A DNA stretch of 64,000 nt, from positions 2,230 through 66,229 of the forward strand of contig JAJBTZ010000011.1 of the NCBI GenBank assembly GCA_020860605.1. Reading direction: 5' to 3'. This document shows, one piece after another, positions 40,456 through 62,139 of this stretch (position 1 is the first letter of the stretch; each line of letters begins with the position of its first letter). Source of the DNA: Ruminococcus sp. Its GTDB lineage: Bacteria; Bacillota; Clostridia; Oscillospirales; Ruminococcaceae. Both the position numbers and the translations under genes were made by a program. Below the pieces are notes generated by a model. That model saw only the letters and a list, made by a program, of their open reading frames with translations. It did no database searches and was not told the origin of the DNA.

Positions 40456-41643
40456 TTACTCAAATATTCTCAATGCCTGAATCAAATCTTTCTGCTGCTT
40501 TCCTTTTGCAAAATCGCCTTTAATACCTTTTAGTTTATATTCACCAATCAAAATTTCTTTCATGCACCACCCTGCTTGGTATAACCACGCAAACGGCTTT
40601 AACCACGGGTGCTTCTTTACTAATTTCCACCTGAGCATTCCATATTTCTGCAAAGTTCTGAAAAAATCTCCGAGGTTATTGCACTTTGAGAATAGAAACG
40701 CACCTTTTCCCTCTGAAGTTGCTTTCGCCTTTCTGCCGAAATTGCCCTGTGTATAAAAGTAATCCAGAAGCTCTGTACACAGTTTTTCATCTGCGTCTGA
40801 GCACCATGTGATGTCTTCACGAAGTCCTAAATACATCTGGCACATCTTCGCGACAGTCTTCGCTATAACATCAAGACCTGCTTTTTCAAAGACCGGCTTG
40901 AACTCATTGCTGTATGCCACATCGTCCAAGTTCTTGTCCACAAACATCATCCAGTCAATAATCTGGCGGAAGCCCAAGCCTCCATCAAGGTGTTTAACAA
41001 TATGTAGTAGCAAAACAAGACCGTTCTGCAAAGTAGGGAGAACAGGTACTTCGTAGGTTTCGCATGGGATCAACTGTACATTCTTTAAACCGTCCTGAAA
41101 CAGTCCGAAAAGATACTCATCATCGCTTTTCATTCCCGCAGGATACTTGTGAATCTCAAATGTAATGCCGTTTTTCTCAAGCGTATAGTGGTAATCGACA
41201 TTATCCTCATCATAGGTGAGAACGTAGCCATTGTCAAGCATAAGACGATAGGCTTCATCAAACTTTTCTATCGGAACGAGAAAGTCGATGTCGCCCATCG
41301 CTCTGTATTCAGGATTTGGATAATTGACTGCAGCCGCTGTTCCTTTCAGAATCGCCATTTCGATATTGTGAGACGAAAGAAGCTTGTACAAGTCATGCTG
41401 TTCGTTTTGAATTTCGGTGAAACGGTGAATGTTGTACATGGTGGCGTTGATCCATTTCTCAGATAATTCATCCGACACAACATCCGCGACCATGTCGGTA
41501 AAGAGATAGGCGATGGATTGGGCTGTGAGCTCTTTGTAGATGGCGGACCAATCGGAAGATTGGATGGTTGGAGGCACAGCTTGGTTTCTGGACCATGCGG
41601 ATATTAAATTGGTGATTATGAATCTCATAAAAACTGTCACCAT
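40456..41643 (-). CDS. uncharacterised nucleotidyltransferase family protein (NTP_transf_5-like)
   Basis: 395 aa. LKGTAAAVNYPNPEYRAMGDIDFLV matches the hallmark of that family. Start uncertain (41643 or 41628). Confidence 0.6.
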   Translation of the reverse strand: MVTVFMRFIITNLISAWSRNQAVPPTIQSSDWSAIYKELTAQSIAYLFTDMVADVVSDELSEKWINATMYNIHRFTEIQNEQHDLYKLLSSHNIEMAILKGTAAAVNYPNPEYRAMGDIDFLVPIEKFDEAYRLMLDNGYVLTYDEDNVDYHYTLEKNGITFEIHKYPAGMKSDDEYLFGLFQDGLKNVQLIPCETYEVPVLPTLQNGLVLLLHIVKHLDGGLGFRQIIDWMMFVDKNLDDVAYSNEFKPVFEKAGLDVIAKTVAKMCQMYLGLREDITWCSDADEKLCTELLDYFYTQGNFGRKAKATSEGKGAFLFSKCNNLGDFFRTLQKYGMLRWKLVKKHPWLKPFAWLYQAGWCMKEILIGEYKLKGIKGDFAKGKQQKDLIQALRIFE

Positions 41644-41681
41644 CCCATTTTAACAGAGAGAAGTTAATTCATCGACACTCC

Positions 41682-42209
41682 TCAAATTCGCTTTAACTCC
41701 ATCCCTTCAATATCTTTATCGGAAATAATTAACTTGTTGTTGAGCTTCGGCCACTCAATTCCAACATCAGGATCATCGTATCTGAGCACACACGCTGCTT
41801 CTTTTTTGAACCCTCCATCTATACACCACTGCATCAAAACATCATCCTCAAGTGTTAAGTAGCCATGAGCAAATCCTTTAGGAACATACATAATTTTTCT
41901 GTTTTCAAAGGAAAGTACCTCTCCAACATATTGACCGAACGTATCTGAGCCCTTTCTTATATCCACACCCACAGAAAAAACAGAACCGTGAAGGCAGGAA
42001 ACCAGTTTTGCCTGTTCATATGGTGTCTTTTGAAAGTGAAGACCACGCATAGTATTGGCTTTATAACTGTATCCATGATTTATTTGACATACATCAAAAT
42101 TGATTCCAAGTTTTCTCGCAGAATCAATCTCCAGTGAAACTGAGGTATACCCTCTATCGTCTGAGTAAACATCCAGACCTTTAAAAACAATAACAGAATC
42201 TTGTCTCAA
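41682..42209 (-). CDS. RmlC-like cupin sugar-nucleotide epimerase (second copy)
   Basis: 175 aa. MRGLHFQ..QAKLVSCLHGSVFSVGVDIRKGS..GFAHGY resembles dTDP-4-dehydrorhamnose 3,5-epimerase but is distinct from rfbC at 57736-58350. Confidence 0.65.
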   Translation of the reverse strand: MRQDSVIVFKGLDVYSDDRGYTSVSLEIDSARKLGINFDVCQINHGYSYKANTMRGLHFQKTPYEQAKLVSCLHGSVFSVGVDIRKGSDTFGQYVGEVLSFENRKIMYVPKGFAHGYLTLEDDVLMQWCIDGGFKKEAACVLRYDDPDVGIEWPKLNNKLIISDKDIEGMELKRI

Positions 42210-42230
42210 TTCTGAACACTTCCTTATAAA

Positions 42231-42665
42231 TCATTCAAAGCTCTTACGAATGGTCTCCATTTCCGATGAATTGGGAAATACTTTGTTGACACCAACTACT
42301 GTATGGAAAGGTGGTACATCCTTAGTTACAATTGCGCCAGCACCAACAATCGCGCCTTCGCCGATTTCAACATGTCCAATAATTGTAGCTCTTGCCCCAA
42401 GAATTGCTCCTTTATGAACTACAGGTGCGTTTTCCAAGCCTTTTGAGGCTCCTAATGTGACACCATGCTGAATAATAACCTTAGATTCAACAACCGCATA
42501 CTTGCTAATCACGACGCCCAATGCAGAATGCTGGAATGAAACATCATCAGCAATATTAGCATCTATTGGAATATCACATCCATAGTAATGGCGCATAAAC
42601 CAACTAATCAAGCGTCTACCCCCCCACGCTTTTCTTCCTAATTGCAAGCATTTACTGACACTCAC
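42231..42665 (-). CDS. hexapeptide-repeat (CysE/WcaB-like) O-acetyltransferase carrying a 5' G7 tract
   Basis: 144 aa from GTG 42665. Left-handed beta-helix repeats (IIQHGVTLG, ILGARATIIGHVEIGEGAIVGAGAIV). Codons 14-16 lie within the G7 tract. Confidence 0.7.
   Translation of the reverse strand: MSVSKCLQLGRKAWGGRRLISWFMRHYYGCDIPIDANIADDVSFQHSALGVVISKYAVVESKVIIQHGVTLGASKGLENAPVVHKGAILGARATIIGHVEIGEGAIVGAGAIVTKDVPPFHTVVGVNKVFPNSSEMETIRKSFE
42619..42625 (-). repeat. G7 homopolymer tract (C7 on the plus strand) in acetyltransferase codons 14-16
   Basis: Read directly. G6 or G8 gives a stop within 1-3 codons after the tract. Confidence 0.95.
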
Positions 42666-43702
42666 TTCTGAATACCCCTCTCTGTAAAATGTGGCTCTCT
42701 ATTTTTTGTACTTTCTTTTCAATGAAAATATTAGACAAAACGGCAAACATAAATGTTAACACCATTGAAATCAGAATCAACAACCATTCTCTTCCTGAAA
42801 TTACCTGTATGAGAAAAGTTATTATCGGCATATGCCATACATATATTCCATACGATAATTCAACCTTAAGGCGACACTTTCCAAATCGAAACGCAAGACC
42901 TAATGTCAACATTCCTGCTAACAGTACAGTTATAGGATCTGTATAATATCCCGCTTCTGCAAGTGGTTCGACATGATACTTTATCAGCAAATGCCATGCC
43001 AAAAATGCAACTGTTATGTAAATGAGATTATTACAGATAAATCGTATTACACTGTCTTTGAACTTGTATCCTAGCACTCCAATCAAGAAAAAGTACAGAT
43101 ACGGCAAAAAACTACTGGAATATATTTTAGCCACAATGCCAAATCCATTATTTTGACAAAGTGAGACAAGCTCATTTCCAATCAGATTAATAAGAAAAGC
43201 ACACGCAAATGTAATCCCCCAAAAGGTCTTGCTGCAATTGCTAATAAGCACCTTTTTACAAAGCACCGCTATCACGTAAATCTGAAGTTCAATCCATATA
43301 GCCCATATTGCTCCGTTACTGATACCATATATCTCATTACCGTTTGGCTTTAATATCATTTTTACTGCAAAAATCAGTACATCCTCAGCACTAAGTTGTA
43401 CCCCCCTGAATCACACTCAGCACATATGCAGCTATAATCATGGCGATAATACTAACGATATACACAGGGTAGATTCGGAAAAATCTCTTTATAAGATAGA
43501 CTCCACCACTCGACCGTTCTAAAGAAGGTATAAGGAAGAAACCACATATTACAAAGAAAGCAACTAATGATGCACCAGCAAAGAGGAATCTATCATATGC
43601 TAGGTTTTCTAATCCAAAAACCGCAACAGAATAGTGAGAAAACATGATCAGTACTGAAGCAACTAATCTAATTACGTCAAAAGAATTTTCCTTATAGTTC
43701 AT
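42652..43702 (-). pseudogene. acyltransferase family 3 (OafA-like O-acyltransferase), split by a frameshift at a G6 tract
   Basis: The 103-aa N-terminal ORF (43391-43702) and the 235-aa C-terminal ORF (42652-43359) are consecutive membrane segments. Deleting one G from the tract at 43401-43406 joins them without a stop. Confidence 0.75.
43401..43406 (-). repeat. G6 homopolymer tract at the acyltransferase-3 frameshift
   Basis: Read directly. G5 or G8 restores the long ORF. Confidence 0.95.
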
Positions 43703-43756
43703 ATCGACATCCTCCAGGCTTCCTTGCTTTTATAAAGTCCAGCCCTTGCTGGCGTT

Positions 43757-45142
43757 TTACTTTTTATAAAATGAAATGTATTTCTTTAAATTCTTACCAT
43801 AGAAGACCAAGTCAAGCAAAGCAATTACTATAAAGTATGCAAAGAAGCCAACAAAATCGTTGCTAATGCAATTTACAAATATAAGAAATACGGCAACAAA
43901 AAGCAACAGGTACAATACGTCTCGTAACTTAATTTTTATAAATTTAAATTGAAATGCGCCCACCACAAGCCATATATAATAAATAATCACTGTTGCGATT
44001 GCAATTCCGATGTAGTTATTCAGGACACGGACAGCTATGGTGTCTAAAACAACGGCTAAGAGCAAGAGACCAATTAATGTTTTAGTATATGTCGCTGTCT
44101 TCTTCTTAATTTTGTACAAGTTTACATATATGCAATTCACAACCGCCATAGCAGGGAAAACCAAAAAATAAACAACAATAACTTCTAAGCTATCTACATA
44201 TTTCGGTATAAAAGCCTTAACGATTATAGAAGCTGCAAAATAAGCACACCCAGATAGCGTTCCGAAGATAAAGAGTAACTCTTTTATGCTATTGTATTCC
44301 TTATCCTCCCATCTTCCCTGTGCCATTGCAGGAAATAAAGGTTGCGCTATTGAAGTAATAAAAACTGTCATCAATGACTGCAAAGAAAGTCCAAAAGAAT
44401 AATAAGCAAAATCTGATGTACTAAAAACGGAGTTAACAAACTGCTTATCAACTGATGTAAATAAAGTATTGATATAGCTTCCCAAAACCATCACAATACC
44501 TGTTTTCTCTGTGTCTAAATTCTCTTTGCTTAAAAATTTCGTGCAATGAGAGCCTTTCAGAATACGAAACACTTGGAAAAGCATCCACACGAATGCCACC
44601 CAGTATACAAACAAATAAGACAATATGTACTGTTGTCCTGAGAGGCTGCCAGATACTAAATATATTGTCAATGCAAGCAATGGCACAGATACCGATAACA
44701 CCATGCTTATGCGTGAATAAGTTTTAAACTGACTCCAGGCTTGCAATAAAGATCTATAACTTCCTACACTACAAAACGGCAATATTACAATTGCTATATA
44801 AAACAGTATTTCGCTTTTTGATACCAGTGCGATTACTGTAAAGACGATGGAGAAGAAAAGTAAAATAAAAAACGTAATCAAGCTTTCGGTTTTCAAACGA
44901 TTCTTATCCAGATCATTAACATCCTTTCCTGCATAATTGACAACCATGCCAGACGGAAAACCTAAATGCAGTATTGTGATATAACTCACATATAGGGTAA
45001 ATGTATGGTATTGGGCATATGAATCAATAGATAAAATTCTGGGAAAAATAAAGCTTCCAATAAAGCCTACAGCTGCTACTAAAAAATTCGCAGATAGAAC
45101 CCTCATTATATTGCTTTTTAACGAGTTATTTTGCAAGTACAA
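43757..45142 (-). CDS. wzx: Wzx-type oligosaccharide flippase (MOP superfamily)
   Basis: 461 aa and about 12 TM helices. Typical polysaccharide biosynthesis protein composition and context. Confidence 0.7.
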   Translation of the reverse strand: MYLQNNSLKSNIMRVLSANFLVAAVGFIGSFIFPRILSIDSYAQYHTFTLYVSYITILHLGFPSGMVVNYAGKDVNDLDKNRLKTESLITFFILLFFSIVFTVIALVSKSEILFYIAIVILPFCSVGSYRSLLQAWSQFKTYSRISMVLSVSVPLLALTIYLVSGSLSGQQYILSYLFVYWVAFVWMLFQVFRILKGSHCTKFLSKENLDTEKTGIVMVLGSYINTLFTSVDKQFVNSVFSTSDFAYYSFGLSLQSLMTVFITSIAQPLFPAMAQGRWEDKEYNSIKELLFIFGTLSGCAYFAASIIVKAFIPKYVDSLEVIVVYFLVFPAMAVVNCIYVNLYKIKKKTATYTKTLIGLLLLAVVLDTIAVRVLNNYIGIAIATVIIYYIWLVVGAFQFKFIKIKLRDVLYLLLFVAVFLIFVNCISNDFVGFFAYFIVIALLDLVFYGKNLKKYISFYKK

Positions 45143-45154
45143 ACACCTCCAAGG

Positions 45155-45808
45155 TTAATGTTTGCAAGATACAATCTTTTCAGAAAATTCAATCGGCTTA
45201 TCAATTAAGCCATAGAACTCCATAATTTCCTCTGGCTTATATTCCCACCATTTTGACTTTTCAATCTCTATAATTTCTTCGTTATTAAAACGATACTTGA
45301 CTACTTTTGCGGGATTGCCTGCCACTACAGCATATGGCGGTACATCATGCGTTATAATTGAACCAGCAGCTAAAACAGCCCCGTTTCCTATGCTTCTACA
45401 TCCAGCGGTTATAAGAACGCCATATCCACACCACGCGCCGTGACCAATAGTTAACTTGTTTCTTTCGACATCGTTAACCTTAAATCCGTATGAAGTATTA
45501 TAAAAATACGGAGACATCGCCACATAATTCATCGGATGGTTAGCTGCGAAATAATGCACGTCTTTGGCAAAGGAGCAGTATCTCCCGACATGAATTTCGC
45601 CGCCCACAGCATAATTGAAATCGGAGGCAAAACAGCCGTAGCTATACATTTCTACGTCCACTTTATATTTTTCTCGATAATAGTCACGTAAGCTTTTTGA
45701 TTGTTGCTGTCCTCCCTCTTTTTGAATTATCTTAGGCATAAATATATGCTTTCCTAAAACAGGAATATCAAACAACTTTTTATACAATTCAAGACACTCC
45801 ATATACAA
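45155..45808 (-). CDS. hexapeptide-repeat O-acetyltransferase (XAT/CatB-related)
   Basis: 217 aa. [48 protein letters not shown]. Confidence 0.75.
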
Positions 45809-45815
45809 TCATCTT

Positions 45816-46982
45816 TTATAACGTATTCTTTCTTGCCCTACTCACAGTTCCTCTAAACGATTTCAGGAAAGAAATTGCTGATTCATTTTTGGCATAGCTC
45901 AACATATTCTTAGTATCATACTCGGGAGAGCTTTTTCCCATAAGTCTGAGTGCTAAAACCTTGCTAGCAATATTCGTTCTTTTCGAATAGTGATTGGGCT
46001 GAACAAACCTTATGGTATCTACCTTATCGTCAATCTTATTCAAATCAATCGCTTTATCTTTAAACGCTCTATTTAAAAGCTCTAAACCTGTTTCTGTCCA
46101 AGCAAATACAATATTTCTACCGTCTTTTTCCGTAAAATCAGGCTTGTTATTAGCGTCAAGATACCAATAATCACCACATGAAATATCAGCCCGCTCGCCA
46201 ATCCCATCAAAGCAAAACTTACATGACTTTCTTATATCTCTGCCCAAAATCTCAATCCAACTTTTCTCGTATTCCATTGTGTGTGCTTTGCCATCGTCAT
46301 CTATGGCTGTTGTAAGCCCAGGCCATCCATTTCCTCTATAACGAAGCTCCTTACATTTGTCGCATTTCAATTCATCAAGCAATTTCTTGTTTGCATCTTC
46401 GCTTGGGATTCCAGCACAGAAGAAAGAGATTAAATACGGAATCCTTTTCCTCAATTTCTCATCGGAATCCATATAGTTTCTGATTGCAGCTACGTCACAG
46501 GGCTTTCCGATAAAGCAGTATCTTTCTCCTTCTCTCAAAAAAGCGGAAAGATTATACAAAGGAGATGATTGGCAATAACGTGATCCAGAGCAAGAATATA
46601 TGTCTTCAACGCATCTTGAGCATACAACATCTGTTGAATATTGCTCATGTTCCGAGGCTTTTACTTGAATAACGCCGTCAACCAAGCTATGAGCCAAAAG
46701 GTATGCCGCTAAAGCAGAAACCACGCCACCACTAGATGCCTTAGTTCGTAGTTCTTCATCCGTGGACCACCCTTGGAATACTCCGTGATAATCTCCCCAT
46801 ACACTTCCATTATACTTTCTCACACCATTCTTCCCGATTGGACAAACGGAAACCATAGATGCTTTTTCTGCTTCTTTGCCCTCAAAGTCGGGATAATAGA
46901 AGCCTTTACTATCCTTGCAAAAGTCTATATCATAAATATCGTGACAAAGACCACAGCCGGAACAAAAATCATAAAAACTCAA
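45816..46982 (-). CDS. FrhB-like (coenzyme F420 hydrogenase beta-subunit family) Fe-S flavoprotein
   Basis: 388 aa. N-terminal CSGCGLCHD cluster and an FrhB-type C-terminal domain. Overlaps the pyruvyl transferase gene by 4 nt, the usual pairing. Confidence 0.7.
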   Translation of the reverse strand: MSFYDFCSGCGLCHDIYDIDFCKDSKGFYYPDFEGKEAEKASMVSVCPIGKNGVRKYNGSVWGDYHGVFQGWSTDEELRTKASSGGVVSALAAYLLAHSLVDGVIQVKASEHEQYSTDVVCSRCVEDIYSCSGSRYCQSSPLYNLSAFLREGERYCFIGKPCDVAAIRNYMDSDEKLRKRIPYLISFFCAGIPSEDANKKLLDELKCDKCKELRYRGNGWPGLTTAIDDDGKAHTMEYEKSWIEILGRDIRKSCKFCFDGIGERADISCGDYWYLDANNKPDFTEKDGRNIVFAWTETGLELLNRAFKDKAIDLNKIDDKVDTIRFVQPNHYSKRTNIASKVLALRLMGKSSPEYDTKNMLSYAKNESAISFLKSFRGTVSRARKNTL

Positions 46983-48139
46983 GACTGTTCCCCTTCCAAT
47001 TTGCTTATCTCACCTCTCATAGCGTTTTTAAAATCATAGAGATACTGATCAATAGCATTCATCGATTTATTTATTGCGTTTCTGAGGTTATCTTTATTCT
47101 CAATCCACTCTAATGATTTTTTAACTGCAACTTCCGTGCTATCTGTGCAACCATGAATTACATAATCATAATTAAGATTCTCATATAATCCCTCAAATTT
47201 ACGGCTATATGAAAAAGGAATAACAGGTACATGGGATGAGTATGCTGCTATAGTTGAATGCATCCTTGACCCAAGAAAAACGTCCATGCTACTAATATAA
47301 CTCTTTGCATCAATAGGATCTGTGAAAGCTGGTGCAGCTATTAAGCTGTGCTCTTTTGCTATGCCCCTACATACACTGACATCTCCATCAATATTATCTG
47401 AATCCGTCTCAATTACATGAGGAATAATGTGTATTTCAACGTCATCCCTCTTTTTTAGAGCTAAAATCAACTCAGTAATATATCTTCTGTAATCAACTGT
47501 TAACGAAAATTGATTTTCTTTAATAAAGCCGCCGTTCCATAATAATCCAGATACATTAATTCCAATATTCAGCTTTCTTTTATCAGTAGAATACTTCTGT
47601 GAATCATACGGTAAAGCAAAAGCCAAGTCAGTAACAACCATAGGATTAATCTTTGTAAGTTTTCTCACATACTCAGCTGATAACTGATCTCTTGTTGTCA
47701 CAAAACAAGCATGCTTAATCGCATACTTTGCCATCGTTTCCAGCTTCTTATTGCTAAAAGGACCATATGTTTGTGGCAACAAATAAAGTGGTGTTCCACA
47801 TTTTTCAACTAGTATTTTAAATAGCGTAGTATAAAATACATTCTTGGGAAAATATATATCTGAGAACCCATCGCCACAGGTAATATCACAAACAAAATCG
47901 CAGGACTTTATCATCTCACGCCACTCAAATTTAGGGTCCTTGATTTTCAATCTGCCGATGCTCATTTTGATATTTGGAAATTGATTCATCAATCTATCAA
48001 GAGAAGCAACCGGGGTAAAAAAATGAACCTCCAAATCATCATTTGTCATTTTATCCAGCATACTTAAAAAGGAATATGTCAGAGCTTCACATCCCTTATT
48101 TGCATCTTCTACTACGAAGCCTAGCAAGCCAATTTTCAT
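46979..48139 (-). CDS. polysaccharide pyruvyl transferase family protein
   Basis: 386 aa. N-terminal KIGLLGF..NKGCEAL and a central GSRMHS motif typical of the CsaB/WcaK-type family. Confidence 0.7.
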   Translation of the reverse strand: MKIGLLGFVVEDANKGCEALTYSFLSMLDKMTNDDLEVHFFTPVASLDRLMNQFPNIKMSIGRLKIKDPKFEWREMIKSCDFVCDITCGDGFSDIYFPKNVFYTTLFKILVEKCGTPLYLLPQTYGPFSNKKLETMAKYAIKHACFVTTRDQLSAEYVRKLTKINPMVVTDLAFALPYDSQKYSTDKRKLNIGINVSGLLWNGGFIKENQFSLTVDYRRYITELILALKKRDDVEIHIIPHVIETDSDNIDGDVSVCRGIAKEHSLIAAPAFTDPIDAKSYISSMDVFLGSRMHSTIAAYSSHVPVIPFSYSRKFEGLYENLNYDYVIHGCTDSTEVAVKKSLEWIENKDNLRNAINKSMNAIDQYLYDFKNAMRGEISKLEGEQS

Positions 48140-49281
48140 TCTAATTCCCCCGTTGAAGAAAGTGCATTCCTTATATTTTCTAAAACACTAAATTTGTTAT
48201 GTTCATCCGGCTCAACATAAGCTCCTTCGCCCCACTCGTTCCATGCCATAAGAAACAGATAGTCGGTGTGGTACTCATTTTTCGCTTTTACAATCAGCTG
48301 CTTTAGATATTTTCCAAACTTATTAGGAGTGAATCCGCATACAATTGTACTATTAAACCCTTTACGAGGAGAGGCATCATAATTCACAAATGCACATGGA
48401 ATGATATTTTCTTGTGCTTGCCTTTGCAAAATGAACTTCCAAATTCCGTCGTAGCTATACTTGTATAGATGTAAAGACTTAAACTTTCCTTTTGTAGCAA
48501 TGTTTAATATTTTCTTACAGTCCTGTCCTATCATATTGAATACAAATCTCGGATTTCTTATCAGATTTTCACGAATAGTATTCATACGATGCTTCATATA
48601 GCATGTCTTAGAATAATCCGGTTCATACTGAATGGATTTACTGATGCAATCTACATTAGCTTTATCCATTAAGTATGTTTGAGCCTGAGAAATGAATGAT
48701 ATTCCCTTAAGACCATTTTCAACTGCCCTACGATTTAAGTATGAGAACATTCTTTCAGCACATTCTATCTTTTCAGGCTGATAAATGACAAGTAACGGCT
48801 TCTCATTAAACTTAATGTATCTACTATCCGAAAAAAATGGTAGTAAATATTGAAAATGCTTCTCCCACTCTTCTTCGTCACCATACTTAACATCCATCAA
48901 TATATCTGTATCTCCGCCGGTCCAAGTACGTGCCCAATTATGATTTGCCCAGCTTAAGCAAAAAGGCAGGTCTAAATCTTTGTTGGCTAAGTACATATCA
49001 ACCGGCTTCTCCATGAGTTGACGTCCTTCTCCCATCCAATAGTGGTAAAAGCAGAAGCCGTATACACCATATTTTTTTGCAAGTGAAATTTGCCACTCAA
49101 AAGTCGACTTTTCCTCCAGAGAATAAAAATTATCGTTCAGCGGAATAGTTGGCTGCACATGCCCACGAAATAGGGGCTTTGACTTTTTTACATTGGTCCA
49201 TTCTGTAAATCCCTTCCCCCACCATTTATCATTTTCAGGAAATGCATAAAATTGCGGCAAATAAAAAGCTATGATTTTCAT
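48136..49281 (-). CDS. WbsX-family glycosyltransferase / GH99-like domain protein
   Basis: 381 aa. Hallmark N-terminus KIIAFYLPQFYAFPENDKWWGKGFTEWTNV. Confidence 0.75.
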   Translation of the reverse strand: MKIIAFYLPQFYAFPENDKWWGKGFTEWTNVKKSKPLFRGHVQPTIPLNDNFYSLEEKSTFEWQISLAKKYGVYGFCFYHYWMGEGRQLMEKPVDMYLANKDLDLPFCLSWANHNWARTWTGGDTDILMDVKYGDEEEWEKHFQYLLPFFSDSRYIKFNEKPLLVIYQPEKIECAERMFSYLNRRAVENGLKGISFISQAQTYLMDKANVDCISKSIQYEPDYSKTCYMKHRMNTIRENLIRNPRFVFNMIGQDCKKILNIATKGKFKSLHLYKYSYDGIWKFILQRQAQENIIPCAFVNYDASPRKGFNSTIVCGFTPNKFGKYLKQLIVKAKNEYHTDYLFLMAWNEWGEGAYVEPDEHNKFSVLENIRNALSSTGELE

Positions 49282-49298
49282 ATAGTACTCCTTATATA

Positions 49299-50596
49299 TT
49301 AGTTTTCCTCTTCAAGTAAAAAGCCATTTTTTCGAGCTGCAAATGTCAAGAACAGAATTATGTAAAAAATACGAGACTCAGTGTCTTGAGCTATGCTAAA
49401 TAAGGTCAAAAAATACGTCAAAAAACCGATTCCAATCATTTTAAACAAAGAAATATAACGGTCAGGGATTTTACTAAGCTTCATAGCAAAGCAGTCTTTC
49501 AGTGCACTTAAACAAAGCAATACCTTGGCTACTAATGAAAATATCCCATATCTGTACAACCAATTCAGTACCTCTACTTCTATACTTTCTTTAGTGGCAT
49601 AGTAACCATATGATACATTACCCATATAATACTCGTAATCCAATGTTGCGCCTGCACCATATCCAAACAATGGATGTTCTTTAACTTTTTCAAAAACCCA
49701 TGCATAAAGCAGAATACGATGTCCCTCAGCAGTCCCAACGCCAGTATCGGAGCCTGAAATATTATCTGCAAAGCTATCATCAAATACAGATAAAATCATA
49801 TACAATAGATTTCTCATAATGTTAGATGTTCCACTCGACAACAACGTCGACACAAATAAAACGACTACAAGTGCTGCTAATACCCCAAGCAGTCGTTTTG
49901 CAAAATCATGAAATCCAAGACTCATCCAAATAAGAATTTGGCAAATGATAAAGAATACTATACTACCTCGCGATATAGTACAAATTGTTCCAACAAACAG
50001 TAACATATATATGATATTGTATTTTAATTTTTCTCTTGAATCCTGAGCTTTGTTCTGTAAATACACGCATAGTGGTGAAATAAGCAAATTATAAGCACCA
50101 TACGAATTTGACTGATAAGTAAAAGATTTTGCACGCACTAGTCCCAGTCTAATTTGATCTGTTATTTCAGCTTGGCTAGTATTTAGTAGAAAAAAACATT
50201 ATATCCTGTGATTGTTTCAATAACTGCAAATATAAATAATAGACCCGCCACTGAGACAAGAACTTCAATGACTCTGTTGAATTTTTCCTCAGAATCAACC
50301 TCATTGATAATGAGAATTCCTAAAACAGGCACATATGCGATATAATAAATATTTGATACCCATTTCTCGTTGACAATTCCACTTACAAATGTAGATACCA
50401 CAAATAAAGCCATAAAGATATCTGTCCAATTTGAAGGTCTTTTCAGAGTAAGCTTTCCGTGTGTTGTAAACAAATAGAGAATAAAAAACAGGGCTACAAG
50501 AATGAAAACTCCAGAAATGTTCCCGACAACAAAATAAGTTGGCAAAATCGGATATAATGCTATGAATAAAATCATTATAGAAAATCTATCAACCAT
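49299..50596 (-). pseudogene. wzy: Wzy-type O-antigen/repeat-unit polymerase, split by a frameshift at a T7 run
   Basis: The 137-aa N-terminal ORF ends ..GYNVFFY*. The 279-aa C-terminal ORF carries the Wzy_C-like TISRGSIVFF region. Adding one T to the run at 50190-50196 reads through (..NVFFLLNTSQAEITDQIRLGLVRAKSFTYQ..). Confidence 0.7.
50190..50196 (-). repeat. T7 homopolymer run (A7 on the plus strand) at the wzy frameshift
   Basis: Read directly. T8 restores the reading frame. Confidence 0.95.
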
Positions 50597-50664
50597 TCTC
50601 TTTTTCCTCTTTTTAACCTCGTTCTAGTATTCTTTAAAATGTTCATGCTTTATTTCGATATATA

Positions 50665-52002
50665 TTAAATATCCAACGTGTTAACGACATATCCTTCAGT
50701 TGCTTTCTCCGAAGGAATTATCTTCCCCGGATTGCCAATAACAATACTATTATCAGGCACGTCAAAATTTACAAATGCTCCCGGAGCAATCAACACATTA
50801 TTGCCTACCTTTATATTACCAACTATTATTGCGTTTGAGCCGATCCAGACTCTGTCTCCTATCGTTGGATTTCCCTGACGCTTGCCTCTGCGCTCATAGC
50901 CGATAGTGACACCTTGAAGTATCTCGCAGTCTTTTCCAATAATAACACCGCCATTTATTGCTATACCTCCGACATGTCTGATTATAAAACCAGATCCAAT
51001 TTGTGTTGTCGTTCCAAGATCTACTCCATACTTGGTAGCATAATGACCATAAATTGCTCTCCAAAAGCAAAACAACACCTTATTCTTGTCCTTGTACTTT
51101 TTACATTTGCGAAACAAGTAAACTACTCTGTATTTTGAAATGCCCATCCAGTGAACCCAAGTCCTAAAATCAGTTTTTCCTGTCCAGCGATATAAGCCAT
51201 ACAAATAGGGCCTTCTACGGAGTCTTTCTAAATCTTGTACCCCCCCACGCTTCCAAATATTTATCAGTTTCAAGCGTGCTGTCTTATACTTTTCTCTTGT
51301 CCTCATTACCCATCTAGGAACTCCGTTGCGTACCCCTATCTCAACGCCTTCCTGAAAAACCTTTTTTGCATTCTCGTCACTAGCTCCTCCGGCAGACATA
51401 ATAGTAGTGACTTCTGGGAACCTTTGGAATTTAACCCCATTACTATAGAATCGTGCCATTAAATCTTTGTCCATTGCATAACGAAACTCAACGTCAAATG
51501 TTCCATACTTCTGATAAGCTGTCTTCTTTACAAAACAAGCCGGATGCATAAGAACCATGTCGTACTTTAGCTTCTTGAGCTTCATAGATGATTTTCTGAC
51601 ATATTGCATATTATTAACTTCATCGACCCACAATATATCTCCGCATATTACTTCACAGTCACTATCAAATGAATCTACTATTTTTTTAAGAATTTGTTTA
51701 TCAGAAAGCCTATCATCCGAATTTATAATCCCAATAATATCTCCAGTTGACCTCTCAATGCCCTTGTTAAAAGCATCACTTATGCCTTTATCAGGTTCGG
51801 ATTTGAAGTTTGTCTCAATACCAGCCTCATGGAATTTAGGAATATACGATTCTATCAACTGTATTGTTCCATCGGTTGATCCGCCATCAACAAGAACATA
51901 CTCCAATGGGCGATATGTCTGTTCTAAGACAGAACACATCGTAGCTTCAATGCTCTTCTGCGAGTTATATGAAATTGTGATTATCGAAACTTTCTCGCCC
52001 AT
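50665..52002 (-). CDS. GT2 glycosyltransferase fused to a CysE/WcaB-like acetyltransferase through a G7 tract
   Basis: 445 aa. N-terminal GT2 (VSIITISYNS, VDGGSTDGT, DSDD-like SDDRL). C-terminal hexapeptide domain (IGDRVWIGSNAIIVGNIKVGNNVLIAPGAFV). The hinge ..WKRGGVQD.. is encoded by the tract. Confidence 0.7.
   Translation of the reverse strand: MGEKVSIITISYNSQKSIEATMCSVLEQTYRPLEYVLVDGGSTDGTIQLIESYIPKFHEAGIETNFKSEPDKGISDAFNKGIERSTGDIIGIINSDDRLSDKQILKKIVDSFDSDCEVICGDILWVDEVNNMQYVRKSSMKLKKLKYDMVLMHPACFVKKTAYQKYGTFDVEFRYAMDKDLMARFYSNGVKFQRFPEVTTIMSAGGASDENAKKVFQEGVEIGVRNGVPRWVMRTREKYKTARLKLINIWKRGGVQDLERLRRRPYLYGLYRWTGKTDFRTWVHWMGISKYRVVYLFRKCKKYKDKNKVLFCFWRAIYGHYATKYGVDLGTTTQIGSGFIIRHVGGIAINGGVIIGKDCEILQGVTIGYERRGKRQGNPTIGDRVWIGSNAIIVGNIKVGNNVLIAPGAFVNFDVPDNSIVIGNPGKIIPSEKATEGYVVNTLDI
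51240..51246 (-). repeat. G7 homopolymer tract at the GT2-acetyltransferase hinge
   Basis: Read directly. G6 stops 3 codons after the tract (..RGGYKI*) and G8 stops 8 codons after it. Confidence 0.95.
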
Positions 52003-52019
52003 TTTGTATTTTCCTCTCT

Positions 52020-53228
52020 TTAGGTGTATATGTCGCTCATACTATGTACTTTTCGGCTCATTAAGCAACTGTCCTCAATATGTTGACTCTGCTGTATACT
52101 CAGCTCTTTCAGGATACTTGGATTGTTAATCAAAGTACCCAGCTTTTCAGCCAAAGCAGATATACAGTAATCATAGCTAATTGCGTTAATACAGCCTTCT
52201 GAATTCTCTCCTAATAAGATTTTAGGTCCTCCTGCTGCAATCGCAATACAAGGCAGTCCGATACTCATTGCTTCCATCATTGTCATGCAGCCAGAATCGC
52301 GTAATGTTGTGTTCACAAACAAATCAAACTGACTGTAGTACTCAAATATCTTATCATGCTGTACCGGAGGATCGAAGAATACCTGTTTATTCAAATGTTC
52401 CTCTGCCAATTTCTGCAATGCTGGCTTCTGGTTTCCCTCGCCTAATATATGCAATTCAGCGTTAGGATGCTTGTCTGCTACCTGTAAGAAAGCTTTAAGA
52501 CCGATGTCAAAGGCTTTCCAGTATATCAATCTACCTGCCATAACGATCTTTACTTTACTGTCGTTTCTTTCTATTCGCTGTACATCCGGCATCTTTTCTA
52601 AGCCAATTGCCGGAACAACTCTTGTCTTGCTCTGATATTTTTCTGGTATCATGGCTTTCGTTTCCTCAGTTGCAACAAGAATAGCTTTCGCACTCTTCAT
52701 TGCTTTCCGAATAGACGGCGTAACTAATGCTGTTGTTTGAGAGAGCTTTCTGACCGCTTCAATCAGCCTTTCTTTGGTCGTCATCTCAATTTTAATTTCT
52801 GAAGGAATATTTTCTCCGCCAGAAACAGTTCCCCAAATTAACGGAATCCCCAGTTTGTACATATATGACGGCTGAGTATATGACACGAAAGTAACGTGTT
52901 GAACGAGATCAAAGTGTATTTTACTGTGCCACTCTTTCGCCACTTTCAGTGCCTTTCTCTGCCACATCATATAGAATAAGCGCATTCCACGGCGACCTTT
53001 TTCCCAAAAGGTCAGCTTCCTAGATAAACCAACATATATGAAATGAAGGTTGTCATTCTTGTACTCTGGATTCTTCTTTAAATAATCAGTAATGGTTGGC
53101 TCATTATTATCCCTTGTCAAGACCCAGACTTCATGGTGCTTAGCTAATTCTATTGCCCAGCTCCAGCCAACTCCAGGCTCTGAGCCTTTATTCGGTTCAC
53201 AAGCATATGCTGATAGTAAAATCTTCAT
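52020..53228 (-). CDS. GT4 family glycosyltransferase
   Basis: 402 aa. N-terminus KILLSAYACEPNKGSEPGVGWSW and a C-terminal E..7..E-type region (DSGCMTMMEAMSIGLP). Confidence 0.75.
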   Translation of the reverse strand: MKILLSAYACEPNKGSEPGVGWSWAIELAKHHEVWVLTRDNNEPTITDYLKKNPEYKNDNLHFIYVGLSRKLTFWEKGRRGMRLFYMMWQRKALKVAKEWHSKIHFDLVQHVTFVSYTQPSYMYKLGIPLIWGTVSGGENIPSEIKIEMTTKERLIEAVRKLSQTTALVTPSIRKAMKSAKAILVATEETKAMIPEKYQSKTRVVPAIGLEKMPDVQRIERNDSKVKIVMAGRLIYWKAFDIGLKAFLQVADKHPNAELHILGEGNQKPALQKLAEEHLNKQVFFDPPVQHDKIFEYYSQFDLFVNTTLRDSGCMTMMEAMSIGLPCIAIAAGGPKILLGENSEGCINAISYDYCISALAEKLGTLINNPSILKELSIQQSQHIEDSCLMSRKVHSMSDIYT

Positions 53229-53396
53229 TTTATGAGTCTCCTCTTAAACAGAGCACAAACCCACGTCATCTACTGAAATCATATAAATGGGTCATAGCTT
53301 TAATTGTTTGCCTTTTCAGACTAGAATTATCGTATAAATCATCTGCAGAAACTTTATAGGAATATCTACGCAGCATTCTGGGTACGCGTCTTGTTA

Positions 53397-54242
53397 TTAC
53401 ACAGCAACCTTTGCACAAATGAGCGAGTACCCCCCCACACTGCTGCTTTCTATCAATTCATCTTTTGTAAAAAGATGATTGAGTTGCTGCGACAATATGC
53501 AAATCATATTGTTGCGGTCAGTCTCATCGAGCTGAGAGACGTCTAAGATAATACCTCGTGGATTTATCATTCTGGTTAGATAAAACTTAGCTTTTGAAAT
53601 TTTACTCTCCTGCGTTTTCTTGTTGACTAATCTGATCGTACGTCTTACTACAGGACATTCCTGTTCAATATTTTTCCATTCTTCCGCAACTACATCTTCG
53701 TATATTGCATTCGCAAACTCTGTTGTAAGAAATGAGTTCATCAATTCTTTTACTTTGCATTGATCGGATAAATACACTTTGCGTATAAAATCTCTGTACT
53801 TCTCTTTTATGTAGCCATGATATAAATATCTTGAGAAAAGCATCGTCACTGCTTGAACAGAATCACTTGCTACATAGATTCCATCAACTTTCCGTCTATC
53901 TTCTAAAAGCATTTCTGCAGGCAGTAAGTTAATGCCATTCCAACCATATGATTGGAAATCAAAATGTGCAAGATAATCTCCATCATCCGCTGACATCACA
54001 ACTGTCCACACATTTCCAAAATCCCGCCATACGGAATACGCAATCTTCCATCCATTGCTACGTATAATTCTCAATATCTGGTCGCTGTATTTCAAATCAA
54101 TCGCTATATCGACATCATGCAAATCTCCGCTTATGATTTCATCTGCATTACGAAGTACACAGTATCTAATACCAGCTTTTTCAAATTCACTAAAGCAATC
54201 TATGATATATGCTATATCTTTTCTCATTGCCTGCTCCTCCAT
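53397..54242 (-). CDS. uncharacterised NTase-like domain protein, truncated paralog of the next gene
   Basis: 281 aa. Collinear with residues ~10-260 of the 445-aa protein (CVLRNADE..HDVDI, YLYHGYIKEKYRDFI). The position of the paralog's P-loop reads VSQLDETDRNN. A G7 tract lies 13 codons before the stop. Confidence 0.5.
   Translation of the reverse strand: MEEQAMRKDIAYIIDCFSEFEKAGIRYCVLRNADEIISGDLHDVDIAIDLKYSDQILRIIRSNGWKIAYSVWRDFGNVWTVVMSADDGDYLAHFDFQSYGWNGINLLPAEMLLEDRRKVDGIYVASDSVQAVTMLFSRYLYHGYIKEKYRDFIRKVYLSDQCKVKELMNSFLTTEFANAIYEDVVAEEWKNIEQECPVVRRTIRLVNKKTQESKISKAKFYLTRMINPRGIILDVSQLDETDRNNMICILSQQLNHLFTKDELIESSSVGGYSLICAKVAV
53430..53436 (-). repeat. G7 homopolymer tract near the 3' end of the NTase-like paralog
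   Basis: Read directly. Length changes replace only the last ~13 residues with alternative tails. Confidence 0.95.
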
Positions 54243-54255
54243 GTCGATATTTTAC

Positions 54256-55593
54256 TTAGCACTTCGCATTGCATGAATCTAAAATTTCTTTTGCAACATT
54301 ATACACAACATCATCAATGGATTCGTTAACATCAATCTCCACAGCATGTGCAAATTTGAGCTCATTTGTTCTCAGCCGCTGAATCTGCTCCTCTATTTCG
54401 CTCACATCAATTTCTTTCTTTCTCTCGTACAAAACCCGTGGATCACCGATAAGTAGGAATGTCACATCCGGCTTGGGAATCATGAATTTAAAGAAATCGA
54501 GAACCTTGTCGCTGATACTGAGGCGATACCGAATTTTATCCATGTAGTAGTCGTAATAATATCTATCGAACACAACTAAGTGTCCTTTTGAAAGTTGCTT
54601 TCGCACCTTGAGCCAATAGCCAAATAGGTAATCAAAATTGAAGAGCATAAACTTCAAAAAGGACTTCACACGTCCATATGGCTTCTTGGCATGTGGTTCT
54701 GTGACTACAACGCTTTCACCGGATGCACCGCCTTTTTTCTTCACAATGACTCCAGGTCTCCAATGGTTATAGTCAAACATTCCTTCAGGAAATGAATTTT
54801 CAAGTACCTGCTCTAAGCCGTCAATAATCGTGCTTTTGCCGCTTCCATCCGTACCCTCGAAAGCTACCATCAAACCCGGTTTGTTTTTCGCTTTCTTCAG
54901 AAGATATTTATAGTAAGAAATCTTACTTTTCCTTGCGGACTTTTGAAGCGATTTTACTATCCTATCGCGCTGTTCTTCTATCTTAGTCCACTCAGAGTTC
55001 ATTACACACTGATAGACGAATTGAACCGTGTCGCCGTCAAGAAAATTCTCCATAAGAACCTTGACAGACTTTTCATGAGAAGAAAAGACTCCTCCAATAT
55101 ATTCCTTATACTTGCTCTTGATATAACCATTATGAAGAAGTCTGATGAAGAGCTTTGTAACGGCTTCTACGGCAGGGTCAGCCTTATGTATTACACCGCT
55201 GCTGTCGATGTTATCTATAAGGGTTGAATTTTCAAGAAGAACGTAGCCACTCCAAGCAAATGTCGGGAAAACATCAAAATGAGCAATATGTATTTCTTTT
55301 GCACTCTGATCTGCGAAATAAAAATGATAGCACTTGATATTCGTCTTGTCTTTCGAGGCACCAGTTTTGATGTGCATCTTCCAACCACAATCATATGCCA
55401 CTCGTATCATTACATTCTCAACATCTACCAGCCTGTCAGCATCAGCTGTCATATCTATATCGTGTGCTTCGCCATTCTCGACTTCATCAGCATTTCGGAG
55501 TACACAGAATTTTATATTTTCTTTTTCAAGTGCCTTAAATATGGCTTTCACGAAATCAACTTCGCAACTCATATCATCCACTGCCCTTTTCAC
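54256..55593 (-). CDS. two-domain protein: uncharacterised NTase-like N-domain + thymidylate-kinase-like P-loop domain
   Basis: 445 aa. N-domain FCVLRNADEVENGEAHDIDM. C-domain begins VAFEGTDGSGKST, the dTMP-kinase-type Walker A. Confidence 0.55.
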   Translation of the reverse strand: MKRAVDDMSCEVDFVKAIFKALEKENIKFCVLRNADEVENGEAHDIDMTADADRLVDVENVMIRVAYDCGWKMHIKTGASKDKTNIKCYHFYFADQSAKEIHIAHFDVFPTFAWSGYVLLENSTLIDNIDSSGVIHKADPAVEAVTKLFIRLLHNGYIKSKYKEYIGGVFSSHEKSVKVLMENFLDGDTVQFVYQCVMNSEWTKIEEQRDRIVKSLQKSARKSKISYYKYLLKKAKNKPGLMVAFEGTDGSGKSTIIDGLEQVLENSFPEGMFDYNHWRPGVIVKKKGGASGESVVVTEPHAKKPYGRVKSFLKFMLFNFDYLFGYWLKVRKQLSKGHLVVFDRYYYDYYMDKIRYRLSISDKVLDFFKFMIPKPDVTFLLIGDPRVLYERKKEIDVSEIEEQIQRLRTNELKFAHAVEIDVNESIDDVVYNVAKEILDSCNAKC

Positions 55594-56511
55594 TTATGCA
55601 AGCTGTGTTATCAGCCTTCTAAACTCGCTTAAAAAAGCTTCTTTGTCTATCTCAAACTCAGGGATATACTTTCTAATTTCTTTAATGCCACTTTCATAAG
55701 CATCTTCAAAAGAAAGATTATTCAGAGCAACGCCTATAACCGTTACATAATGCATGATGTCATAGCCTGCCATTCTGTAGCCACATTGCTCCCAGTCAAA
55801 TACCGTATAGCGGTTTTCAGTCTTTTTAATATTCCAAGGCGCAAAATCACCGTGTGAAAACTCACATCCCGACAAATGCTCCCCAAATTTTATAGCCGAT
55901 ATTTCTTTGTAAATCTCAACAATATCTTCTGTGAGAACCGGCTCGACTTTTTCACCTTTAAACTCCCTTGTCAATTGTAAATTGAACGGATTGCCATTAT
56001 CTGCTTTTATAGCTGTGATGAGTTCGGGAATCTCAAATGTCCTGTATGCCCCACGCTTGCTCAGGAAATCCATCTCAGCAGACATTTCTTTCTCTGTGGC
56101 GGAGTTTCCTATTTTTACGAAGACTGCATCATCTGTATCATTTCCAAAGCACTGCATTACGAGCTTTTGCTTTTCGTCATATGTTCCGACAATCATGTTC
56201 CATGAACTTTTGCCAGTCTGCTCGAATGCCTTTTCTATCTCTGGATGAAGCTGCACCTTTGCAAAGTAGCCCATTCCAGCTTTTTCGAGCAGCCAAAACG
56301 GAATGCAGTTCAGATATTTCATCAGCAGTCCCAGCTTGCCGGAATATGTAGAGATATTCTGACTCAGCCGTTTCTTTCCGCTGGGAGCAATTATGTATCT
56401 AATCTTATCTCCATTGCAAAGAACAAAGTGCGATGAGTCTTTCTTTTCAGTTTTTTCTATCTTTAGTGCCTGTTTCAGTATGCCAGACGTACTTTTCATA
56501 TCACTCATCAA
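55594..56511 (-). CDS. protein-kinase-like fold phosphotransferase (APH/choline-kinase family)
   Basis: 305 aa. Brenner-type catalytic motif FSHGDFAPWNI followed by VFDWEQCG. Confidence 0.65.
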   Translation of the reverse strand: MMSDMKSTSGILKQALKIEKTEKKDSSHFVLCNGDKIRYIIAPSGKKRLSQNISTYSGKLGLLMKYLNCIPFWLLEKAGMGYFAKVQLHPEIEKAFEQTGKSSWNMIVGTYDEKQKLVMQCFGNDTDDAVFVKIGNSATEKEMSAEMDFLSKRGAYRTFEIPELITAIKADNGNPFNLQLTREFKGEKVEPVLTEDIVEIYKEISAIKFGEHLSGCEFSHGDFAPWNIKKTENRYTVFDWEQCGYRMAGYDIMHYVTVIGVALNNLSFEDAYESGIKEIRKYIPEFEIDKEAFLSEFRRLITQLA

Positions 56512-57735: not shown

Positions 57736-58350
57736 CTAAAACCTAAACGTATCTTTCAACCCCACCCACAACTGATCTTTCTCACTCAGCCTAAGTGGCG
57801 TACCATCCTCAAGCGCATATCCCTCAGCAGATGCTGTCCCATTGTAAGCACCTGTTACTCCAACCCCTGCCCAATCAATCCCAATCTTCGGATCATTCCA
57901 GGCAAGTCCTCCCTCGTCATTCGGGTGATAGAAGTCATCGCACTTATAGCAGAACTCTGCCGTATCACTCAATACGAGAAAACCGTGTGCGAAGCCTCTG
58001 GGAATCAGAAACTGCTTCTTGTTCTCCTCAGTCAGCTCAATGCCATACCATTTACCGTAAGTGTCTGAACCACTTCTCAGATCCACGGCTACATCGAAAA
58101 CAGAACCTTTAATCACTCTGACAAGCTTCGTCTGGGGATAATCCTTCTGGAAATGAAGTCCACGAAGGACGCCCTTTGTTGACATCGACTGGTTGTCTTG
58201 AACGAAAGTAATGTCAATTCCCGCTTCTTCCATATCTCTCTGACTGTAGGTCTCCATAAAGTAGCCACGGCTGTCACCATGAACGGCTGGCTCTATTACG
58301 CACAAGCCCTTGATGCCTGCGACGTCCTTTTCAACTTTTATCTGTCCCAT
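57736..58350 (-). CDS. rfbC: dTDP-4-dehydrorhamnose 3,5-epimerase
   Basis: 204 aa. HGDSRGYFMETY, RGLHFQ, GFAHGF motifs. rfbABDC context. Confidence 0.9.
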   Translation of the reverse strand: MGQIKVEKDVAGIKGLCVIEPAVHGDSRGYFMETYSQRDMEEAGIDITFVQDNQSMSTKGVLRGLHFQKDYPQTKLVRVIKGSVFDVAVDLRSGSDTYGKWYGIELTEENKKQFLIPRGFAHGFLVLSDTAEFCYKCDDFYHPNDEGGLAWNDPKIGIDWAGVGVTGAYNGTASAEGYALEDGTPLRLSEKDQLWVGLKDTFRF

Positions 58351-62112: not shown

Positions 62113-62139
62113 CAAAAAAATAAGCCCTCCGAAGAGGGC
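62113..62139 (-). terminator. rho-independent terminator after the 75-aa ORF, upstream of the glycan operon
   Basis: Minus strand: GCCCTC-ttcg-GAGGGC followed by TTATTTTTTT. Confidence 0.8.

Follow-up and report, generated by a model that had tools for sequence, protein, structure and literature searches.

A stretch of Ruminococcus sp. DNA 64,000 nucleotides (nt) long (contig JAJBTZ010000011.1), called the window here, contains within a low-GC polysaccharide locus a gene for a stand-alone, putative polysaccharide O-acyltransferase of the acyltransferase-3 (AT3) family. The reading frame of this gene is interrupted at a run of six G residues (G6). It is probable that slipped-strand changes in the length of this poly-G tract toggle the gene between "ON" and "OFF" states and that the window represents the OFF state. 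A preliminary description of this DNA had noted that an OFF-state, phase-variable gene would look like this. That view is now supported by relatives whose tracts are in frame (G5 and G9), by frames that are otherwise intact, and by purifying selection; a high rate of reversal at G6 is something that we infer. The AT3 gene also has three of the features by which a contingency locus is recognized: a repeat within the reading frame that shifts the frame, both ON and OFF alleles, and a coding sequence that is otherwise whole and selectively maintained.

On the minus strand, which encodes the gene, the sequence across the tract (C6 on the plus strand) reads ...GCT GCA TAT GTG CTG AGT GTG ATT CAG GGG GGT ACA ACT TAG, and this TAG ends the 5' fragment of the gene (Table 1). 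The 3' part lies in another frame; taken from its internal ATG, it is an open reading frame (ORF) of 235 amino acids (aa) at 42652-43359 that begins MILKPNGNE. Both the sequence itself and the ORF coordinates place the break exactly at G6, as first described. When the tract is changed in silico, G5 yields a single ORF of 349 aa and G8 yields one of 350 aa, with no internal stop in either case; G4, G7, or G9 leads to a stop at codons 104-109. The earlier proposals that G5 or G8 would restore the frame and that G7 would give a nearby stop are thus borne out. The G5 join matches the Pfam profile Acyl_transf_3 (PF01757) at 82 bits (gathering cut-off, 31; E = 5.6e-23), residues 6-322 being aligned with positions 2-323 of the 326 in the profile. 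Because this alignment is one continuous stretch, the tract can be taken as the sole lesion in the gene. This had been claimed, as had the fit of the joined length to the family, which the full-length match confirms. A scan of the regions flanking the gene for promoters and terminators found nothing beyond the expectation from shuffled sequence.

The product of the gene is a member of the AT3 (PF01757) family. The R-X10-H motif is present as R12-LVASVLIMFS-H23 and the RXXR motif as R73-F-F-R76, and both columns of each motif are invariant in an alignment of homologues. In characterized AT3 proteins, R-X10-H lies in the first transmembrane helix (Arg14/His25 of OafB) and RXXR lies at the cytoplasmic face of the third (PMC9833829). 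The hydropathy segments of the joined protein merge into about 10 hydrophobic helices, and an AlphaFold2 model built on an 8-sequence alignment is all-helical (predicted local distance difference test, 81.5; predicted template modeling score, 0.82). In this model, the tract-encoded residues Q99-G100-V101 lie where helix 66-99 ends, just ahead of a short loop (100-104). Homologues with 25-41% identity contain one or two Gly residues at this site, and their loops vary in length; therefore, the protein should tolerate the gain or loss of one codon here. The best database homologues are at most 41% identical. Searches with the protein found no match in NCBIfam and no match among PDB sequences, and Foldseek returned nothing significant from the PDB, the sole meaningful matches being to HGSNAT, a human transmembrane acetyltransferase (E = 0.15-0.47). 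Given its family and its position in a Wzx/Wzy locus, the enzyme is presumed to O-acylate (probably O-acetylate) a polysaccharide repeat unit on the external side of the membrane. The label "OafA-like" in the preliminary description is right as to family and wrong as to architecture. The protein stops at residue 349, right after the AT3 domain, its only Pfam match is PF01757, and it lacks an SGNH domain; an AT3-SGNH identity of the OafA/OafB type is thus ruled out, and the protein is like Oac and WbaK instead.

In the proposed mechanism, replication slippage would alter the length of a G run that encodes the short loop after transmembrane helix (TM) 3 (residues 99-101). With G5, G8, or G9 (the last together with a CGG codon), the frame would be held and full-length AT3 would be made, giving the ON state. 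With G6 or G7, translation would terminate after 103-108 residues, giving the OFF state. The OFF product would consist of TM1-3 only; it would keep R-X10-H and RXXR, both of which fall within the 103-aa fragment, and would lose the other seven helices. Switching at the tract would presumably be reversible and occur at a high rate. The nature of the substrate is likewise presumed, and either phage or host immunity may be the selective agent.

Tract lengths expected of both states are found among relatives of the window. In all, 24 related loci (L001-L024) were retrieved as Logan contigs and NCBI metagenome-assembled genomes (MAGs). The OFF length, G6, is shared by the window and 16 further tract-spanning loci (L004-L011, L013-L019, and L024; L017 and L019 are the contigs of L006 and L004, respectively, read again); runs with this length include SRR15221353, SRR15221352, and SRR15900781. 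The G6 sequences with 99.8-100% identity to the window are near-identical Logan contigs from 12 runs and the NCBI MAG GCA_021205335.1; those with 91-93% identity are the MAG GCA_965328765.1, one Logan contig, and the GTDB representative MAG JAJQGJ01. The in-frame length that had been predicted, G5, is found in L001 (SRR15221354), which is 99.85% identical to the window across 2.7 kb, and the ON and OFF alleles of these close relatives differ only in tract length at AT3. A further ON arrangement, G9, occurs in L002 and L003 (two runs, SRR15221332 and SRR15221328; 87-93% identity), where a change of CAG to CGG lengthens the run. Moreover, a 90%-identity protein cluster, examined by exact-sequence look-up, includes both the split products (103 and 235 aa) and two full-length proteins of 349 aa. 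Within JGI (Joint Genome Institute) metagenome contigs, neither a DNA-pattern scan that allowed a variable G run nor a protein scan found a relative.

Several features of the retrieved contigs concern their flanks and ends. Positions 1-120 of L002 and 1-160 of L003 form an upstream flank unlike that of the window from 43723 onward. This suggests that the cassette of the G9 lineage, consisting of AT3, an adjoining left-handed beta-helix (LbH) acetyltransferase gene, and rmlC, lies in a different locus setting or that loci have exchanged it. The end of the L003 contig falls inside the counterpart of a second G tract (42619-42625). In addition, many independent Logan contigs end at the same window positions (41095, 43630-43924, and 50609-50662), a hint at most of coexisting strains or of mixed tract lengths within samples, which interrupt the assembly graph.

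Could the split be a homopolymer artefact of sequencing or assembly, either in the window or in the contigs compared with it? The question bears on a near-clonal set of 14 samples spanning 22 kb (window 41095-63229 versus L001, L004-L012, and L016-L024), which contains 71 single-nucleotide polymorphisms (SNPs; 65 transitions and 6 transversions) and 11 indels. All 11 indels are one-base homopolymer changes (G runs account for 4, T runs for 6, and an A run for 1), and the G5 allele comes from a single short contig, as an artefact might have it. However, a base-calling error, which had been named as a look-alike, is disfavoured because G6 recurs in ~16 independent assemblies that come from various samples and pipelines (Logan contigs and at least one MAG contig with a SPAdes-type name). 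The indel alleles are common to several samples, with those in A/T runs mostly tracking SNP haplotypes. Furthermore, among runs of at least 6 in 12.3 kb of the first alignment, 3/3 G runs vary versus 3/22 A/T runs, unlike generic homopolymer error. An artefact is thus very improbable. The spectrum of variants in this set resembles that of weak or absent mismatch repair.

If the tract is set aside, every AT3 allele contains 98 plus 249 (or 248) open codons with no other stop or indel. The ratio of nonsynonymous to synonymous divergence (dN/dS) between the window and L013 is 0.05 for the part N-terminal to the tract and 0.15 for the C-terminal part; the corresponding values are 0.08 and 0.35 against L014, and 0.05 and 0.17 against L002. 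Two OFF alleles, those of L013 and L014, give a whole-gene value of 0.16 when compared with each other. The tests reject neutrality (P = 4e-8 to 4e-3), and intact neighbouring genes give values of 0.04-0.18. Since the lineages are separated by a dS of 0.1-0.2, a gene that had been dead since their common ancestor would not be expected to give such ratios together with intact frames; AT3 would either be ON much of the time or have OFF states that arise repeatedly and recently. An old pseudogene is disfavoured because there is no second lesion and because both halves are under purifying selection, even when OFF is compared with OFF. A fixed pseudogene had been the other look-alike; relatives do carry G6, but they carry no extra lesion. 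That the G run itself is conserved across lineages might suggest selection for mutability, but with only about two synonymous sites involved this argument was dropped.

Maintenance of G6 in three diverged lineages, with the downstream 249 codons open and under purifying selection, could also mean that the G6 allele is functional and yields full-length product through a +1 ribosomal frameshift at GGG-GGU or through transcriptional slippage along the G run. G runs do allow low-level +1 slippage of tRNA-Gly, but six G residues are far below the usual run lengths for productive transcriptional slippage. The codon that would enter the A site after the slip is GGT, which is not a stop and is not obviously rare. 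Two further findings do not fit a programmed frameshift: relatives contain natural in-frame alleles (G5 and G9), so a frameshifted arrangement is not obligatory, and reading of the sequence by eye, with no formal search, reveals no stimulator such as a prfB-like, positioned Shine-Dalgarno sequence. Recoding is therefore quite unlikely. Another way in which a split gene might work is for two polypeptides (TM1-3 and TM4-10) to be made and to assemble into an active enzyme; the second of the two ORFs could start at an ATG (43357-43359), and conservation extends to both parts. This ATG lacks a well-spaced Shine-Dalgarno-like sequence, however, with a GAGGA lying ~24 nt upstream. Tract and ATG are separated by 14 codons that likewise show conservation in the frame of the C-terminal part, and full-length alleles exist. 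A split enzyme is thus scarcely credible.

Poly-G tracts elsewhere in the locus are unstable as well. The 15.6-kb low-GC locus contains four G/C runs of at least 6, each of them G in the coding strand, where a first-order Markov model predicts 1.4 (P about 0.05). The remaining 48 kb of the window contain one such run versus 9.5 expected. The three tracts other than that of AT3 are all G7 in the window, and two of them lie at acetyltransferase modules (Table 1). The second tract is at the 5' end of the LbH gene. With G7, a candidate GTG start (42663-42665) preceded 9 nt upstream by GAGGGG is in frame, encoding 144 aa; with G6, a candidate ATG start (42649-42651) that abuts the AT3 stop codon is in frame, encoding 139 aa. 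The third tract separates two domains of one gene, a glycosyltransferase family 2 (GT2) domain and an LbH acetyltransferase domain. Here G7 gives a fusion protein of 445 aa, G6 separates a 257-aa product from a 179-aa ORF that has a TTG start of its own, and both states are found inside single SNP haplotypes. The fourth tract lies near the end of an ORF (53397-54242) whose protein has no family match. In this case G7 gives 276 aa and G6 gives 286 aa, with tails of 13 versus 23 residues. G7 is present in the window and one other sample, and G6 in seven other contigs (six samples) and a MAG. The two LbH-associated tracts share a 15-mer (AAGCGTGGGGGGGTA) and were considered as homologous sites in paralogues; this was rejected, as the modules are 26% identical and the tracts do not align.

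The history of these tracts was examined in the near-clonal set with the four-gamete test. None of 465 SNP-SNP pairs is incompatible, and thus the background is clonal. The three informative G tracts conflict with SNPs in 27/93 comparisons (9/31 informative SNPs for the second tract, 13/31 for the third, and 5/31 for the fourth), versus 4/93 for indels in A/T runs. Conflicts of this frequency on a clonal background indicate that the three G7 tracts have changed length recurrently; the AT3 tract, which differs in a single sample, is not one of the informative tracts.

The principal rival to reversible switching is a recent, effectively one-way loss of function at a mutational hotspot, in which AT3, and perhaps the whole locus, has been inactivated by relaxed or loss-favouring selection. 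We regard this as unlikely, although several observations weigh against switching or fit a loss. To begin with, the tract is short. The PhasomeIt convention for phase-variable tracts is at least 7 G/C (PMC6321876); the G6 of the window and the ON G5 of the same lineage fall short of this, and G9 is seen only in L002 and L003. The G5 allele is known from one 2.7-kb Logan contig. OFF (G6) is the state of three of four diverged lineages and is near-invariant in the window lineage (14/15 near-clonal samples), so the AT3 tract, differing in 1/15, is not parsimony-informative for recurrent change.

Lesions in other genes of the locus point the same way. The window and all contigs of its lineage have a Wzy gene (49299-50596, minus strand) broken into 137 and 279 aa by a one-base deletion that has produced a T7 run at 50190-50196. 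The diverged relatives L013-L015 have an unbroken Wzy (432-449 aa), and the L006/L016 haplotype carries two more T-run deletions in the gene. T- or A-run frameshifts occur in single haplotypes in six locus genes (WbsX, pyruvyl-transferase, Wzy, FrhB-like, GT4, and rmlC), and a nonsense SNP is present in the gene for a 215-aa acetyltransferase. Within the lineage there are 41 nonsynonymous SNPs and 1 stop versus 23 synonymous SNPs (pN/pS, the polymorphism counterpart of dN/dS, about 0.5). In the window lineage, therefore, the locus may be in decay, or selection may favour its loss. If Wzy is truly dead there, the state of AT3 possibly has no current phenotype. However, a one-way loss does not readily explain why G6 is found across lineages separated by a dS of 0.1-0.2 while dN/dS remains at 0.05-0.35 with no second lesion, why in-frame G5 and G9 alleles exist, or why homoplasy against a clonal background is seen for poly-G tracts and not for A/T-run indels. 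Reversible switching of AT3 thus remains the preferred explanation.

The AT3 gene belongs to a Wzx/Wzy-type locus in which every gene of the low-GC block (40.4-56 kb) is on the minus strand. The locus encodes GT4, GT2, and WbsX glycosyltransferases, Wzy, Wzx, a pyruvyl transferase with an FrhB-like partner, and rml products. It also encodes four acyl/acetyltransferases: AT3; the 139/144-aa EpsC/WcaB-like hexapeptide (LbH) protein, whose gene is directly downstream of AT3; the 445-aa GT2-LbH fusion; and the 215-aa Vat/WbbJ-like LbH protein. Two genes of the rmlC type (dTDP-4-dehydrorhamnose 3,5-epimerase) are present. One (57736-58350) is in the upstream rml block, and the other (41682-42209) is at the downstream end, beside the acetyltransferase cassette. 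At window positions 62121 and 62497, T7 runs have changed by +1 and -1, respectively, in both L016 and L020. Both runs are in non-coding DNA upstream of the WecG-like gene that is first in the locus, and the changes could influence locus transcription. An NCBI MAG under the name Ruminococcus sp. (MCC81302xx) shares several identical proteins with the window, and relatives are named Oscillospiraceae bacterium. An identity as an enterobacterial O-antigen locus was rejected because complete E. coli genomes, searched by megablast with 41600-45200, contained no match.

Table 1. Coordinates of the AT3 gene, its locus, and the poly-G tracts in the window
Feature	Positions	Strand	Remarks
Low-GC Wzx/Wzy-type polysaccharide locus, including AT3	40456..56511	-	36-41% GC versus ~50% in the surroundings
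G6 tract	43401..43406	-	Sets the AT3 frame; predicted OFF with G6 and ON with G5, G8, or G9 with CGG
AT3 5' fragment	43391..43702	-	103 aa; premature TAG at 43391-43393; encodes TM1-3
AT3 3' part	42652..43400	-	Other frame; 249 open codons from tract to TAA at 42652-42654
GGAGGA, Shine-Dalgarno-like sequence (putative function)	43710..43715	-	7 nt 5' of the AT3 ATG (43700-43702)
LbH acetyltransferase gene	42231..42665	-	Adjoins AT3 downstream; left-handed beta-helix, hexapeptide repeat
Second poly-G run	42619..42625	-	G7 in the window, G6 in most relatives, G9 in L002; 5' end of LbH gene
Third poly-G run (G7)	51240..51246	-	Between GT2 and LbH acetyltransferase domains of gene 50665-52002
Fourth poly-G run (G7)	53430..53436	-	11 codons before the stop of ORF 53397-54242

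A broader and more tentative idea, which we consider possible but doubtful, is that the four poly-G tracts are switches that together form a Campylobacter-style surface "phasome" in one capsule/exopolysaccharide locus of a commensal gut bacterium of the class Clostridia. Three of the four would act on acyl/acetyltransferase modules and could generate combinatorial O-acetylation. They would do so in three distinct modes: ON/OFF frameshifting of AT3, a dual-start switch in the LbH gene, and fused versus separate GT2 and LbH products. A mutation spectrum of the mismatch-repair-poor kind may help such switching.

Repeat-slippage ON/OFF control of surface-polysaccharide O-acetylation is classical in mucosal pathogens (Haemophilus, Neisseria, and Campylobacter). 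Phase variation in gut commensals has been studied mostly as DNA inversion. A search of the literature found no description of repeat-slippage switching of O-acetylation for Oscillospiraceae/Ruminococcus gut commensals. The main points of interest are thus the host group and the clustering of switches on acetyltransferase modules. If the proposed switching is real, public metagenome assemblies already hold ON and OFF alleles of capsule-decoration genes from an uncultured commensal, and the tracts of the locus form a defined set that could be genotyped at read level to study pressure from phage or antibodies. Annotation is affected as well, since genes split in this way are discarded as pseudogenes; AT3 itself apparently has no protein record in the source MAG, judging from the accession numbering.

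Among known AT3 proteins, those most like the window protein in design are Oac/OacA of Shigella phage and WbaK of Salmonella, which are AT3-only proteins of ~330-350 aa with ~10 helices and the R-X10-H and RXXR motifs (PMC9558356, PMC9833829). WbaK is also encoded, like the window gene, within or beside a polysaccharide gene cluster. However, the window protein has no detectable close sequence relationship to Oac or WbaK, and a homopolymer switch is not described for them in PMC9558356. Salmonella OafA and OafB share the AT3 domain and motifs with the window protein. Unlike it, they continue into an 11th transmembrane helix and end in an SGNH domain, and the phase-variable expression of OafB is epigenetic (PMC9558356), while the switch proposed here is a frameshift in the coding sequence.

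In both oafA of Haemophilus influenzae and the window gene, the frame of an AT3-family sugar O-acyltransferase is set by a simple-sequence repeat within the gene. The oafA repeat has a multi-nucleotide unit and is not a homopolymer, and oafA belongs to a Gram-negative pathogen in which the target is a heptose of lipooligosaccharide (LOS). In contrast, the window gene encodes a stand-alone AT3 of 349 aa, its G run is short, and it is part of a Wzx/Wzy locus in a Gram-positive-type gut anaerobe. H. influenzae oafA, which encodes a phase-variable LOS O-acetyltransferase of the AT3 family, is frameshifted in the first genome to be sequenced (strain Rd) and intact in other strains (PMC9558356), much as ON and OFF alleles of the window gene occur among its relatives.

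For the LbH gene, two of three tract lengths are predicted to give a full-length product, with differing N-termini. Switches of the lic1 type in H. influenzae contain alternative start codons in different frames upstream of the repeat. From what is generally known of lic1, the LbH gene can be likened to it, having two starts in different frames before its repeat.

Finally, the clustering of several coding poly-G runs in a surface-polysaccharide locus is a feature shared with Campylobacter jejuni. In the capsule and LOS clusters of C. jejuni, coding poly-G runs are over-represented and vary between close isolates, giving combinatorial surface variants (PMC6321876). The tracts of C. jejuni are usually at least G8, and their switching has been shown experimentally; those of the window locus are G5-G7 (G9 in one lineage), and the evidence for their switching is comparative.

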